Shown one piece after another: positions 1 through 64,000 of a DNA stretch of 64,000 bases (the stretch's first letter is position 1; every line of letters starts with the position of its first letter). The stretch is from a phage. The notes under the pieces are model-generated. The model was given only the letters and a program-made list of their open reading frames with translations. It was not told the origin of the DNA and did no database searches. The position numbers and the translations under genes are program-made. The stretch lies in the NCBI GenBank assembly GCA_014435945.1, contig GCA_014435945.1_4088.1; one strand, written 5' to 3'.

Positions 1-1002
1 AATGGTAACATTAGAACCAACACCCAATGAACCAGCATAACTACTCGCATTTAAACCTGTTGCATATACACCAGAACTCGTAACTAGTATACTAGATTGT
101 GCTGGGTATCCAGTATGAATTGAATACAAAGTACCGGGTGGTAAGGTTGTACTATTATTTCCTAATACTGCTCGTGCTGTACTAGACGTAGTGTTATTAC
201 CCCATGCCCCATTATTGGCGTTCCCACCCACTAGGAACTGACGTGCTCCTGTACTTGGATTCTCCACTAAAGCACTGACTGCACCAATTGTACATACAAC
301 ATATTGTAATGTTTTTGTATATGTTGTACTTGGCTGATATAAAGTATATTGATTGTATGGAGTCCATGTATCAGTAGTACTTATACCTGATGTACTACCA
401 CCAATATATAAATTATTTTGTGTATCATAAAACATTACACAGCTATTTGTTGACTGTATTCGTGCAATATCAACATTAGGCGTGACAGCTTTTACAAATG
501 ATCCATCTGTTATTTGTTGAGTACTACCAGTACCATCAGCGAATTGTCTAGCCCCACTCCAACCAGTACTCCATATTGTATTATTATCCATTAAGAAAGT
601 AAACCAAGTAGTACCTGCATACATCTGTTTAATTGAAGTACCTGAACTTTGTGTGTACAAATTTTCAATATATTGGTTATAACTTAAAAATGATGTAGTA
701 CTAGTTTCTAAACCAATATGACCACCATATCCACAATAAAAATAATTTAAGTCCTTATCTTGAACTAACAAAGTTCCTTGTGTCATCCAGCAATCTTTGA
801 CATTTTCTCTAATTAATGTCCACGACCTTACTGCATTATTATTTCCGCGACCGAACTTCCCATAACTATTATTTCCTCGTGCGTATAGTTGACCGTCAGT
901 ATAAAGTACAACCACATCAGTATCAGTTGGTATTATTTTCTTAATTAGAAGAGGTTCAGGTGTGATATTCCCATAATCAAACAATCTAACAAAAGGTAAC
1001 AT
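1..1002 (-). CDS. RCC1-like beta-propeller repeat protein, array member (C-terminal part outside window)
   Basis: ATG at 1000-1002 with conserved SD/TATAAT cassette upstream; N-term MLPFVRLFDYGN; GQLG-type repeats. Confidence 0.7.
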   Translation of the reverse strand, partial: MLPFVRLFDYGNITPEPLLIKKIIPTDTDVVVLYTDGQLYARGNNSYGKFGRGNNNAVRSWTLIRENVKDCWMTQGTLLVQDKDLNYFYCGYGGHIGLETSTTSFLSYNQYIENLYTQSSGTSIKQMYAGTTWFTFLMDNNTIWSTGWSGARQFADGTGSTQQITDGSFVKAVTPNVDIARIQSTNSCVMFYDTQNNLYIGGSTSGISTTDTWTPYNQYTLYQPSTTYTKTLQYVVCTIGAVSALVENPSTGARQFLVGGNANNGAWGNNTTSSTARAVLGNNSTTLPPGTLYSIHTGYPAQSSILVTSSGVYATGLNASSYAGSLGVGSNVTI

Positions 1003-1073
1003 ATTTTCCTCCTTTATTCATTATACTATATTTAACCAAAAAGAAAAGCCAGTGCTCAAGTACTGGAGTAATG
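1003..1073 (-). promoter_or_regulatory. Intergenic cassette: terminator-like hairpin (CCAGT..ACTGG) + TATAAT box + AGGAGG SD
   Basis: Same cassette repeated between array genes. Confidence 0.5.
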
Positions 1074-2216
1074 TCAATAAGTATCCCAAGGTAATGGTGT
1101 CTTCCTAAATCCATACCTGGTTGTGCTCGCACCATCACCAGCAATGTATCTACCTATACCACATTGGTATAACTCTGTACTACTACATATAGCACCACCT
1201 ATAGTACCACTACTCCACTGAATTATATTAGAATATGTTATTGGTAAATCACTACATTTAGTATATATCCCAACGGTAGCACCACCACTAATACCACCAA
1301 ACATACTTCGGTTAGCACCAGTGTAATATATACCATCTGGACTCATAAATGCAGAGGTGTAAGTTGTACTGCAATCCACTGGACTTCTTATTGTATTAAG
1401 ATCGCCTGGGTATGTCCTGACACCAAAGGTGTATACATTACCATCAGTTGTAATACCATTACCTAACTGTCCACTGTTTTGTCCACCACATGTAAGCAAC
1501 AATGCAGAACCAGAAACAATTGCAGTAGCATTATACGAAGTACCCATTGCAATAGAAGCACCAGACAATAGTTTTGGAGTAACAATAGCTGTTGTATTAC
1601 CCTGGCCTAATTCACCATTGATATTTCGTCCCCATGCGTATATAGAAGTCGTATCCAATCGACATAGTACTGAACCATAACTAAACGTATATCGCATGTC
1701 ATTTACAGCAGAAGGCAAATTAACCTTAGTTGCAACACTAATAACACCACCAGTAACACCACTGTTTGCGTACATGTTACGACCATATGCATATAAAGAA
1801 CCATCTGAAGTTTTAATATGCATCATACCATCTGTACAATATAATGCATCTATACTCTCCACCGCAACCGGACCCATACTGGTAGTTATATCGGTCCACC
1901 CAAGCGTGGTAGTACTAGAAATTAAGTTATTTCCGGCGTATAGTATTCTATTATTATTAGTAACTACAACTGTATATCTGGCAGTAACACCAATTAATCG
2001 AACATCAGTATATATCTTAGACCACGCACCTAATGAATTGGTGTTTGCATCCAAAAAGCCCAACTGCCCATCTGTATTGTATCCAATACCCCATACATCA
2101 CCTGCACTGTCCAATAACACTTCATGTGAAAATCCAATCTTAAAATCTTTTATTGTAGGAACTACCGGAACTGGTGCAATATTCCCGTACTTAACCATTC
2201 TTGCAAAAGGTAACAT
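1074..2216 (-). CDS. RCC1-like beta-propeller repeat protein, array member
   Basis: 380 aa ORF; N-term MLPFARMVKYGN; repeated G-x-N-x-x-GQLG motifs; SD AGGGAGG. Confidence 0.75.
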   Translation of the reverse strand: MLPFARMVKYGNIAPVPVVPTIKDFKIGFSHEVLLDSAGDVWGIGYNTDGQLGFLDANTNSLGAWSKIYTDVRLIGVTARYTVVVTNNNRILYAGNNLISSTTTLGWTDITTSMGPVAVESIDALYCTDGMMHIKTSDGSLYAYGRNMYANSGVTGGVISVATKVNLPSAVNDMRYTFSYGSVLCRLDTTSIYAWGRNINGELGQGNTTAIVTPKLLSGASIAMGTSYNATAIVSGSALLLTCGGQNSGQLGNGITTDGNVYTFGVRTYPGDLNTIRSPVDCSTTYTSAFMSPDGIYYTGANRSMFGGISGGATVGIYTKCSDLPITYSNIIQWSSGTIGGAICSSTELYQCGIGRYIAGDGASTTRYGFRKTPLPWDTY

Positions 2217-2269
2217 AATTCCCTCCTTTATTCATTATACTATATTTAATACAAATAAGAATGCCAGTA
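2217..2269 (-). promoter_or_regulatory. Intergenic cassette: TATAAT box + SD; 9-bp-stem hairpin (2261-2283) overlaps stop codon of upstream gene, followed by T-run
   Basis: ATGCCAGTA-cttga-TACTGGCAT then tcttatttgtatt on minus strand. Confidence 0.55.
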
Positions 2270-62557: not shown

Positions 62558-63040
62558 ATGTCCAAAGACCTATCATTTAGCAATGCACAAAAAATCGCAC
62601 AAAATATCATTAAACTTCATAAGTTCCTTTTAACAGTTAAAGAGAATATAATTCTCCCACGATGCACACTTTATGCGTACAAAAATTATTTGTCAATGAA
62701 TAGCAATTTGTTGTATACTACAGATGAGAATTTCTGTGGTATTCGTGTACTTGACGATGCACCAACAGGGGATTTTATCTCATATTGTTTCCATACATCT
62801 GATAGTTTTAAGTACTATCATCCTAGATTTAATGATGATGAATATGAATATGACACATTTAATGTTAGATCAGAAGAAGAATTCTTCCAGTACAGTACTT
62901 TGTACAATGAGAGAATCGTGTTTAGTTCTACAATTTTTACAGTACTTAAAGATGAACTCAATGACGCAGATGATAGATTCTATATGGATTTAAACTTCGT
63001 AGATGAAATCATTGAGTACATGGAGAAAAATGGTCTATGA
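62558..63040 (+). CDS. paralog family C protein
   Basis: SEEEFFQYSTLYNERIV. Confidence 0.62.
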   Translation: MSKDLSFSNAQKIAQNIIKLHKFLLTVKENIILPRCTLYAYKNYLSMNSNLLYTTDENFCGIRVLDDAPTGDFISYCFHTSDSFKYYHPRFNDDEYEYDTFNVRSEEEFFQYSTLYNERIVFSSTIFTVLKDELNDADDRFYMDLNFVDEIIEYMEKNGL

Positions 63041-63519
63041 TTACAACAGAATATGATTACGATGGTGTTTTAGAATTTGCATCTAACATTCATCGCATTG
63101 CAAAGGAGTTCAGAAGTCCCCAACCTTTCGGTGGAATGCCTTTTGGTGGAATGTTCCAATATGACCAATTCAGTTCAACCAAAGGAAGACTTGCCTTTAA
63201 AAATAATAGGGACAATCAAGTATATGCTGAGTACTTTGACGATAATGACTTTCATTACAGAGGTGAATATATTTCATATTGCCAAGGGTCCGATTTGAAG
63301 ATTAACATTGATACATTTAGAGATTCAGTGCTTATCCCTTACAATGAGTTAGTTTTCATGACTGAAGAAATGTACTTCCAAGGGTCTTGTATTCATGATG
63401 CAAAAGTACTTAATGCTATATTACTTTATGGTGCACTACTTCATCATTACAAATACAAACAACGATTCTTTTTAGATTTAGATGTATACCATAAATGCGT
63501 GGATTATTTGAATGCATAA
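63037..63519 (+). CDS. paralog family C protein
   Basis: TEEMYFQGSCIHDAKVL. Confidence 0.62.
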   Translation: MITTEYDYDGVLEFASNIHRIAKEFRSPQPFGGMPFGGMFQYDQFSSTKGRLAFKNNRDNQVYAEYFDDNDFHYRGEYISYCQGSDLKINIDTFRDSVLIPYNELVFMTEEMYFQGSCIHDAKVLNAILLYGALLHHYKYKQRFFLDLDVYHKCVDYLNA

Positions 63520-63874
63520 TACAACAACAATTCAGTACATGACGGATGGCAATGATTGCTTTGCTTCAAGATATGAATTCACCAAGAACCATTTCGTAAC
63601 CTATATCCCTGAATATAATCAGTTTTATCTACAGATTTACCAAAATGATTCATATATGAATGAGATATATTCTGAAATAAAAATCCCTGATTATAGTACT
63701 TTATCAGAAGAGGAATTGTTTCAGGAGAGCACTGTCAATACTGAAGATGTGTACGAACTAATGGAATACCAGAAGGTACTTAAATATTTCCATGAAGTTC
63801 AGGATATACAAATGGATAGTGTTAAAACGTGGAATTATAACACATACGAGGTAAATTATGTTCGAAATGATTAA
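63512..63874 (+). CDS. paralog family C protein
   Basis: SEEELFQESTVNTEDVY. Confidence 0.62.
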   Translation: MHNTTTIQYMTDGNDCFASRYEFTKNHFVTYIPEYNQFYLQIYQNDSYMNEIYSEIKIPDYSTLSEEELFQESTVNTEDVYELMEYQKVLKYFHEVQDIQMDSVKTWNYNTYEVNYVRND

Positions 63875-64000
63875 AATTATGCAACGATGCATTGTTGACC
63901 AACATGGAATATATGGATATAGTTTAAGTGCAGCTATTGACAAAAACAAAACAACCTATGTAAGCTATAATTCAGTACTTGGATTTGATATATTCATTGA
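63858..64000 (+). CDS. hypothetical protein (3' end outside window)
   Basis: Open frame from ATG 63858 to window end; SD AGGTAA. Confidence 0.4.
   Translation, partial: MFEMIKIMQRCIVDQHGIYGYSLSAAIDKNKTTYVSYNSVLGFDIFI

Follow-up and report, generated by a model that had tools for sequence, protein, structure and literature searches.

Excess of the palindrome AGTACT and a sense-strand ACT-free gene block in Rak2-like jumbo phages

Layout of the window and abundance of AGTACT

The window, that is, the whole 64 kb stretch of phage DNA analysed here (NCBI assembly GCA_014435945.1; 35.3% G+C), carries the palindromic hexamer AGTACT far above expectation and includes a block of genes whose sense strand is devoid of the trinucleotide ACT. 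The window is ~95% identical to the Escherichia phages BF17, vB_Ec-M-J, EC.P1 and Turkey3, and 82-90% identical to 121Q and PBECO4. On the basis of these identity levels, its sequence assigns it to Asteriusvirus, the genus of the 121Q/PBECO4-like Rak2-like jumbo myoviruses infecting E. coli (genomes of 350-385 kb). All gene coordinates below are simple open reading frame calls made in the present analysis.

The left part of the window is occupied by an array of ten paralogous genes on the minus strand (1,074-11,931; ~390 aa each), RCC1-like by the annotation of the syntenic genes in 121Q and vB_Ec-M-J, where AGTACT is found at 2.8/kb despite the orientation of the genes. Small genes were called between 12 and 17 kb. 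A megablast search with positions 12,000-20,000 also returned matches of 80-90% identity to records labelled Phapecoctavirus, Justusliebigvirus, Vequintavirinae and Campylobacter phage, which suggests that small genes and cassettes of this part are shared with phi92-like coliphages, or that the records are mislabelled. Positions 17,250-39,140 (plus strand) are the counterpart of the terminal repeat, as mapped from vB_Ec-M-J, in whose record direct terminal repeats are annotated at 1-21,525 (21.5 kb; offset to the window ~+17,615). By this mapping the physical left genome end would fall near 17.25 kb of the window. The repeat holds ~60 small early genes, each with its own putative promoter and leader stem-loop, and shows the highest density of AGTACT, 6.5/kb overall and 11.3/kb in non-coding DNA.

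The inner edge of the terminal repeat is exactly where a tandem array of ~23 paralogous genes of ~70 aa (39,141-44,700, plus strand) begins. The array contains no AGTACT, ten TGTACT and a normal frequency of ACT; the ten TGTACT possibly stem from one ancestral site amplified by tandem duplication. A short, ordinary, AGTACT-rich stretch (44,701-46,433, plus strand, nine sites) lies between the array and a second AGTACT-free block, the ACT-free zone (46,434-55,048, plus strand; 8,615 bp, ~21 genes), which would be situated ~29-37 kb from the left end, inside the first 10% of the linear genome. Right of the zone the first ACT is met at 55,049 and the first AGTACT at 55,384; the downstream genes (55,049-64,000, plus strand) encode products of 100-200 aa, as do the gene blocks from 44.7 kb on, fall into several paralog groups, and have AGTACT back at 4.8/kb.

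An exact count gives 270 copies of AGTACT in 64,000 bp, which makes it the most frequent of the 4,096 hexamers in the window, above the A/T-rich words. Shuffled sequences that preserve dinucleotide composition contain 20.49 ± 4.26 copies (largest 30), and none of 100 reached 270. The ratio of observed to expected copies (O/E) falls with the order of the Markov model taken as background, from 13.0 (order 1) through 5.3 (order 2) and 2.38 (order 3) to 1.18 (order 4). The partial fit at higher orders stems from the AGTACT sites, which raise the counts of AGTA, GTAC and TACT. At order 3 the expectation is 113.6 (z ~15), and 100 simulated order-3 sequences contained 114.5 ± 9.9 copies, with a maximum of 151; masking the sites from the background lowers the order-3 expectation to 37.4 in the window (O/E 7.2) and to 135.9 in the complete 121Q genome (O/E 6.6). 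The over-representation claimed in the original prediction, an earlier reading of this DNA from its sequence alone, is thus borne out and was understated there, and the order-3 ratio stays well away from 1, the value that the prediction had named as speaking against it. Coding DNA contains 179 copies (3.3/kb), which use every reading frame and occur in genes on either strand, and non-coding DNA 89 (8.7/kb). The same prediction had placed the word in the coding regions of all four gene families, which is incorrect: the blocks at 39,141-44,700 and 46,434-55,048 are without a single copy.

Intergenic regions of the terminal repeat (19-39 kb) are built of repeated cassettes consisting of TTGACA or TTGCAA, a spacer, TATAAT, a GC-rich leader hairpin, a Shine-Dalgarno sequence and the start codon; by consensus, the cassettes carry putative sigma-70-type early promoters. 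AGTACT occupies two fixed registers in them. In the first, it starts at -27 from TATAAT and its last base opens the -35 element (AGTAC-TTGCAA, 20 cases), while in the second it starts at -7 from TATAAT (AGTACT-G-TATAAT, 17 cases). A promoter with both registers, 20 bp apart, is found at 23,201-23,239 (plus strand), and the commonest short spacing between two AGTACT genome-wide is 20-22 bp. The two registers would correspond to classic operator positions. Promoter-type contexts hold 49 of the 270 copies (18%), and many promoter-proximal copies directly follow the stop codon of the preceding gene and would be intercistronic if RNA reads through. The presence of cagtactgtataat in promoter spacers had been recognized rightly (15-17 cases), whereas the copies described as terminator stems (ccagtactgg) are nothing of the kind: CCAGTACTGG has three copies, two of them in a conserved intergenic element and the third in a promoter spacer.

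That conserved element is common to the longer intergenic regions of the terminal repeat (20,370-20,797, 22,721-22,963, 27,970-28,179, 29,640-29,968, 31,682-31,931 and 34,885-35,051; e.g., AGCCCATAGGGTGCGGAAGTGTATCTAT and CACCCGGTGGGTTAG, sometimes with CCAGTACTGG). It may be a small RNA or another regulatory element, and a comparison with Rfam gave no match for it. The leaders of the small early genes (19,369-38,245) carry a hairpin, GGGGAGAA-loop-TTCTCCCC, just upstream of the Shine-Dalgarno sequence after nearly every early promoter; this hairpin sits 3' of the promoter and not as a terminator of the upstream gene.

The ACT-free zone and its candidate gene

Between 46,431 and 55,049 the plus strand is without ACT, a gap of 8,618 bp, the next-largest gap in the window being 354 bp. 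Zero copies are observed against 218 expected from the neighbouring DNA or 58 expected from the zone's own AC and CT frequencies (P(0) <= 6e-26). The 375 AC dinucleotides of the zone are followed by A (262), G (70) or C (43) and never by T. The sense strand lacks ACT in every reading frame and between genes alike, the antisense triplet AGT being normal (214 copies). Accordingly low is the share of ACT among Thr codons, 3% in the zone vs 45% elsewhere. The zone starts inside a gene (46,235-46,558) and contains a terminator-like site (51,309-51,330) followed by a consensus promoter; in a scan of 38.5-56.5 kb, terminator-like sites were no commoner than in shuffled sequence. Its plus strand is C-poor and T-rich (C 12.8% vs 16.9%, T 32.5% vs 28.7%), with G and A unchanged. 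This compositional shift is not intrinsic to the ACT ban because the divergent zone of JNE01 is without it.

Neither AGTACT nor TGTACT occurs in the zone, while AGTACA has 50 copies where 4.0 are expected, distributed over the three frames and flanked by the same bases as AGTACT (CAGTACAG, TTCAGTAC). AGTACA stands above the synonymous shuffle (47 copies vs 17.7 ± 3.6), and 22 of 38 copies are conserved vs a background of 40%. Out of the nine one-step escapes from AGTACT only AGTACA is enriched in the zone, the others occurring 0-7 times vs 0.5-7.8 expected. This excess implies that the pressure for the word still acts within the zone, subject to a strand-specific ban on ACT. The polarity of the variants (AGTACA 50, TGTACT 0) is confined to the zone, whose minus strand keeps TGTACT at ~5.8/kb. 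We consider this block structure, the AGTACA variant together with the ACT-free zone, which the original prediction missed, the most informative feature of the window.

The ACT ban co-occurs with a gene at 49,942-50,517 (plus strand, 191 aa), an ortholog of 121Q gp351 (PHROG 19795), whose product is more conserved than any other zone protein. All 12 relatives that have an ortholog or homolog of this gene keep the zone intact, and it is relaxed in both relatives that lack the gene, ph0011 and UE-S1. An exact test of this association, which is a correlation, gives 1/91 when shared ancestry is ignored. In the decaying zones ~20 and ~17 point substitutions lie scattered, most of them not shared by the two genomes. 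In the same two genomes the array of ~70-aa genes contains AGTACT (ph0011 eight, UE-S1 core two), a trend only, as alignment in the array is unreliable. The candidate gene has two paralogs in the zone, at 48,179-48,739 and 48,816-49,322 (plus strand), which are 27-31% identical.

The product of 49,942-50,517 gave no family, defence-system or structural match and is without similarity to MazF/PemK or a known nuclease, and none of the zone proteins resembles a known RNase, toxin or defence protein. Two faint similarities are probably meaningless: the protein encoded at 51,940-52,548 has a very weak NCBIfam match to KwaB (E = 0.0055, 15.9 bits vs a cut-off of 200), and that encoded at 47,848-48,177 a weak Pfam match to Hen1_N (E = 0.007), far below threshold.

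Selection on the word and its spread among phages

The AGTACT excess characterizes a whole clade, the enterobacterial Rak2-like jumbo phages of the genera Asteriusvirus, Alcyoneusvirus and Mimasvirus. In the complete genome of 121Q (348,532 bp) AGTACT is the top hexamer with 903 copies, 9.05 times the order-1 expectation; it is spread at ~2/kb through the replication and structural genes on either strand and reaches 6-7/kb in the early small-gene region. Klebsiella phage RaK2 (Alcyoneusvirus), Cronobacter phage GAP32 and Pectobacterium phage CBB (both Mimasvirus) have 114, 114 and 112 copies, respectively, per 50 kb of core genes, 7-10 times the expectation, and in each AGTACT is the top-ranked word. 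Early regions are richer, with 170 copies per 50 kb in RaK2 and 253 in GAP32. The preferred context is C-AGTACT-G (CAGTACTG occurs 61 times in the window), and information in the flanks is found only at -1 (C favoured, G disfavoured) and +1 (G favoured, C disfavoured), a dyad-symmetric pattern that is the same in 121Q, RaK2 and GAP32. PA5oct, a more distant Pseudomonas relative, has three AGTACT in 50 kb and no comparable enriched palindrome. Coliphage phi92 has none in 50 kb (positions 1-50,000), a stretch from which 25 palindromic hexamers are absent. AGTACT itself may be under restriction pressure in coliphages, which would make the excess in the Rak2-like phages more striking.

Other palindromes are avoided in these genomes. 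About 26 of the 64 palindromic hexamers have zero copies in the window, nearly all of them GC-containing (GGATCC, CTGCAG, GAGCTC, CCATGG, GGTACC, CGTACG, etc.); this is strong restriction-site avoidance, and RaK2, GAP32 and CBB behave likewise (24-30 absent per 50 kb). The tetramer GCGC is missing from the window (62 expected), from the whole of 121Q (291 expected) and from the RaK2, GAP32 and CBB samples, and is found at normal frequency in PA5oct (47) and phi92 (48); its total ban co-occurs phylogenetically with the AGTACT excess. With regard to codon usage, the Ser codon AGU is heavily used (35-39%), partly because of AGTACT, and the 121Q record annotates a tRNA-Ser with the anticodon ACT at 75,464-75,555 (annotation taken as is), which would read AGU.

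Shuffling synonymous codons within genes, a procedure that leaves the proteins and the codon usage of each gene unchanged, yields 54.6 ± 6.1 AGTACT in the genes of the window vs 173 observed, and 211.7 ± 12.3 in the genes of 121Q vs 733 observed. The excess is specific to the perfect word: in 121Q the 18 single-mutation neighbours of AGTACT occur at 0.6-2.2 times the expectation, and the neighbours that deamination would produce are not depleted (AGTATT 1.42-fold, AATACT 1.05-fold). The fact that the neighbours are undepleted excludes a repair- or mutation-driven origin, and the mutational bias that had been offered as one possible cause is rejected on these grounds. On sense strands AGTACA and TGTACT stand at 1.35 and 1.26 times the shuffle expectation, i.e., outside the zone the one-off variants show no sense/antisense bias, which indicates a strand-symmetric signal at the level of duplex DNA.

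The comparison of the window with 121Q (86% identity over 50 kb) shows that 171 of the 223 aligned AGTACT sites (76.7%) are unchanged, vs 51.5% for all hexamers; by conservation AGTACT ranks sixth of 536 words, beside TTGACA and GTATAA. Third-codon positions are conserved to 88.1% within sites vs 78.7% outside (p = 7e-5), and non-coding positions to 95.3% vs 89.6% (p = 9e-6). Such modest conservation per site is expected if it is the density and not the individual copy that matters. AGTACT is a selected, strand-symmetric recognition word and neither a mutational nor a repeat artefact.

Readers of the word, and comparison with known systems

From the two sequence rules, the AGTACT excess and the ACT ban, we infer phage proteins that read DNA or RNA. 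We tentatively propose, at somewhat less than even odds, that a dimeric phage protein specific to the clade binds or modifies AGTACT on duplex DNA. The suggestion in the original prediction of a recognition site for a phage DNA-binding or -modifying protein is, as a general idea, the best supported (by the palindrome, the specificity for the perfect word, selection, the occurrence in three genera and the promoter phasing); its example of a protective methyltransferase is neither supported nor refuted. The reader would be a factor conserved in Asteriusvirus, Alcyoneusvirus and Mimasvirus, most likely a dimeric sequence-specific protein. A dimer or tetramer on the two registers, which are about two helical turns apart and abut the -35 and -10 elements, could serve as an operator complex over early transcription, and the intragenic copies would lead to genome-wide occupancy that marks, organizes or protects the phage DNA.

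Several points weigh against this proposal. No DNA-binding protein of matching phyletic distribution turned up, though no systematic search was made. A scan of 38.5-56.5 kb for the promoter consensus found promoter-like sites no commoner than in shuffled sequence, and the promoter function of the cassettes is itself read from their consensus. A 9-13-fold excess in genes of every class would be unusual for a transcription-factor operator, and individual sites are moderately conserved, so that most must be dispensable singly. Finally, the banned ACT equals a half-site of the palindrome, a coincidence with a chance of ~2/64 that a duplex-binding dimer leaves unexplained and that hints at a single-strand reading of ACT.

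An unlikely alternative is that AGTACT is the target of a phage methyltransferase, which would protect the DNA from ScaI/Eco255I-type restriction or set an epigenetic self-mark for another protein to read, the density being selected to cover the genome. Hundreds of ScaI sites are tolerated in a genome that avoids ~26 palindromic hexamers and GCGC, which suggests that these sites are uncleavable, and the scarcity of AGTACT in other E. coli and Pseudomonas phages (none in phi92 and three in PA5oct per 50 kb) may reflect restriction pressure on the site. AGTACT is an exact palindrome like Type II targets, and 121Q encodes a C5-cytosine methyltransferase (PF00145) and a Dam-family methyltransferase (PF05869), whose specificities are not readable from sequence. 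However, protection predicts neutrality of the site, not a 9-13-fold enrichment, conserved copies and fixed promoter registers. A homolog of the C5-methyltransferase with 51% identity is present in phi92, in 50 kb of which AGTACT is absent, and the window itself encodes no methyltransferase. The known ScaI methylase belongs to the N4-cytosine class; no N4-cytosine methylase domain was seen among the proteins scanned.

To a preferred start site of a T4-type primase we give little weight. Such an enzyme would read 5'-ACT-3', with the 3' T as the cryptic base, and make the pentamer pppGUACU; the palindrome would serve both strands, and the plus strand of the zone would be unprimable. The ban in the zone concerns one trinucleotide on one strand, and primases are the classic single-strand trinucleotide readers; T4 gp61 initiates at 5'-GTT or 5'-GCT, and its product is a pentaribonucleotide (PMC10359460). 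The hexamer equals one cryptic plus five templating bases, gp61/gp41-like proteins are annotated in these phages, the need for density on both strands would explain the genome-wide spread and the weak selection per site, and the TGTACT retained on the minus strand of the zone also fits. Nevertheless, ACT alone already occurs every ~50 nt, so a primase would need no enrichment of the hexamer, and the single-strand unit without the palindrome (CGTACT, GGTACT, TGTACT) is found at 1.5-2.2 times the expectation vs 9.05 times for AGTACT. The fixed promoter registers are left unexplained, an unprimable strand of 8.6 kb has no evident benefit, the ACT ban tracks a small ORFan gene and not the primase, and PA5oct has a primase subunit but no enriched word.

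Very unlikely as the cause of the hexamer excess is an effector at the RNA level, possibly the product of 49,942-50,517, that cleaves or binds RNA at ACU with AGUACU as its optimum, so that zone transcripts would be immune and AGUACU elsewhere would time decay or processing. As an explanation of the ACT-free zone alone the same effector is far more plausible, if still short of an even chance. The absence of ACT from the sense strand in three frames and in intergenic DNA, next to a normal antisense triplet, is what an RNA-level ban would leave, as is its maintenance in all 12 genomes with the gene and its decay in the two without. It is established that some endoribonucleases are specific for a triplet and that ACA-less messages can be translated (PMC5408214), and many promoter-proximal AGTACT would be intercistronic in read-through RNA. 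On the other hand, perfect palindromy of the hexamer would serve no purpose in an RNA signal, and outside the zone the variants of the word do not favour the sense strand. All other mRNAs of the phage contain ACU, at ~25 per kb. The left edge of the zone does not coincide with a promoter, at least one putative terminator/promoter pair lies within the zone, and the zone proteins are unlike any known RNase, toxin or defence protein.

Binding of the sites by a host protein, e.g., the nucleoid-occlusion factor SlmA, by which the phage DNA would manipulate cell division or nucleoid structure, is highly improbable. The SlmA site (GTGAGTACTCAC) is a 12-bp palindrome with an AGTACT core and conserved outer GT/AC, and SlmA is present in Enterobacterales and is not known from Pseudomonas, a host range that would match the phage distribution of AGTACT. 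SlmA binding is contradicted by the absence of the required flanks: of the 903 sites of 121Q three are part of GAGTACTC and two of GT.AGTACT.AC, both motifs are missing from the window, and G at -1 and C at +1 are disfavoured (10% and 6%).

That AGTACT has no dedicated function and is a by-product of promoter cassettes, paralog families, codon usage or context-dependent mutation or repair bias, as the wealth of repeated cassettes and paralog arrays in the window, the commonness of the codons AGT, ACT, GTA and TAC and the near-reproduction of the count by the order-4 model might suggest, has next to no probability left, because no more than 49 of the 270 copies belong to cassette contexts, single-copy core genes of four genomes from three genera show the excess as well, the observed counts lie 3.2-3.5-fold above the codon shuffles, the neighbours are undepleted, synonymous and non-coding positions of the sites are conserved above background, and the agreement with the order-4 model is circular (with the sites masked, ~38 copies are expected).

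Returning to a duplex-binding reader of AGTACT, we picture a second, younger rule superimposed on it in Asteriusvirus, the absolute ban on sense-strand ACT in one ~8.6-kb gene block, which probably acts through RNA or single-stranded DNA. In the block subject to both rules, AGTACA would be the closest admissible variant: it has no ACT on the plus strand, keeps one perfect half-site and is changed at the outermost position. More speculatively, and with about one chance in four by our estimate, the two rules form a two-layer addressing system, in which the clade-wide AGTACT (~900 copies) serves the reader, and an ORFan family of Asteriusvirus (gp351/49,942-50,517) targets the half-site ACT (ACU) in single-stranded nucleic acid, its neighbourhood of ~20 genes having been purged of sense ACT and supplied with AGTACA instead. 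If this is true, hexamer and triplet belong to one recognition code that separates the phage's own transcripts or DNA from the rest of the cell, and the zone would be the viral equivalent of ACA-less messages that resist a toxin, extended to an entire operon block.

One AGTACT per 240-400 bp of genomes of 350-380 kb is kept across genera whose hosts are Escherichia, Salmonella, Klebsiella, Cronobacter and Pectobacterium, which implies that the reader of the word must be central to the biology of these phages. Its identity would open up regulation and genome handling in a clade with more than 80% of genes of unknown function. The two natural deletion variants with decaying exclusion provide a ready-made genetic test of the action of an ORFan family on RNA or single-stranded DNA, and if the activity is that of a triplet-specific nuclease or binder, a new molecular tool could be gained. 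In metagenomes, the density of AGTACT and the absence of GCGC are simple markers of the clade. A motif search of the phage literature and the full texts of the CBB and Sharanji papers yielded no mention of either the AGTACT excess or the ACT-free zone.

Among known systems, the ACT-free zone is closest to the ACA-less messages of MazF systems, in that a triplet is absent from the sense strand regardless of frame and the ban tracks one gene. For ACU no dedicated toxin is listed, ChpBK cutting ACY and Kid UUACU (PMC5408214). The zone differs in comprising ~21 genes over 4.4-8.8 kb of a virus, in the triplet ACU and in having no recognisable endoribonuclease, and action on RNA would have to be assumed for it. 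As far as we know, the zone is the first natural multi-gene block with total exclusion of a trinucleotide on one strand. The primases of T4 (gp61) and T7, the latter starting at 5'-GTC (PMC2910064), would share with the system the strand-specific reading of a 3-nt word on single-stranded DNA, and the 1+5 arithmetic fits a hexamer ending in ACT. The ACT specificity is hypothetical here, which sets the present case apart from these enzymes. We know of no primase that drives enrichment of its extended site or regional exclusion of its triplet.

Restriction avoidance offers another parallel: the first-step-transfer segment of T5 is without EcoRI sites. In the present genome GC-containing palindromes are avoided, and both AGTACT-free blocks lie in the first ~10% of the linear genome beside the terminal repeat. 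AGTACT, however, is enriched and not avoided, and the terminal repeat, which must enter first, is the densest of all; moreover, no restriction enzyme would give rise to an exclusion like that of the zone, which is limited to a triplet on a single strand. The early cassettes resemble the PeSL of T4-type phages, ~50-100-bp composite repeats of an early promoter and a stem-loop that promote recombination (PMC2839356, PMC4122927), as the small genes of a plastic region each have a repeated stem-loop and a sigma-70-type promoter, the latter by consensus. They differ in that the stem-loop follows the promoter, in the leader, and 82% of AGTACT are found outside cassettes, with enrichment extending to core genes.

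The bias that very-short-patch repair (Vsr) introduces was discarded as a model, the deamination neighbours AGTATT and AATACT (1.42- and 1.05-fold) not being depleted. Chi, the FtsK-orienting polar sequences (KOPS) and the uptake sequences of Neisseria and Haemophilus are short words of dedicated machines, found far above chance within genes in all frames and selected for density. They are 8-12 nt long (the GATC of Dam/SeqA/MutH is not enriched), mostly asymmetric and polar, and all belong to cellular chromosomes. A polar word of the Chi or KOPS kind was rejected for AGTACT, which is palindromic and whose variants have no sense/antisense bias outside the zone (1.35- vs 1.26-fold). DNA uptake sequences (9-12 nt, often inverted pairs that act as terminators) were rejected as well, the information in AGTACT being 6+2 bp and the three copies of CCAGTACTGG including no terminator. 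Like these words, AGTACT stands far above chance throughout the genome and inside genes in all frames; unlike them, it is a perfect palindrome of 6 bp, belongs to a virus, is enriched 9-13-fold and has block-specific variants.

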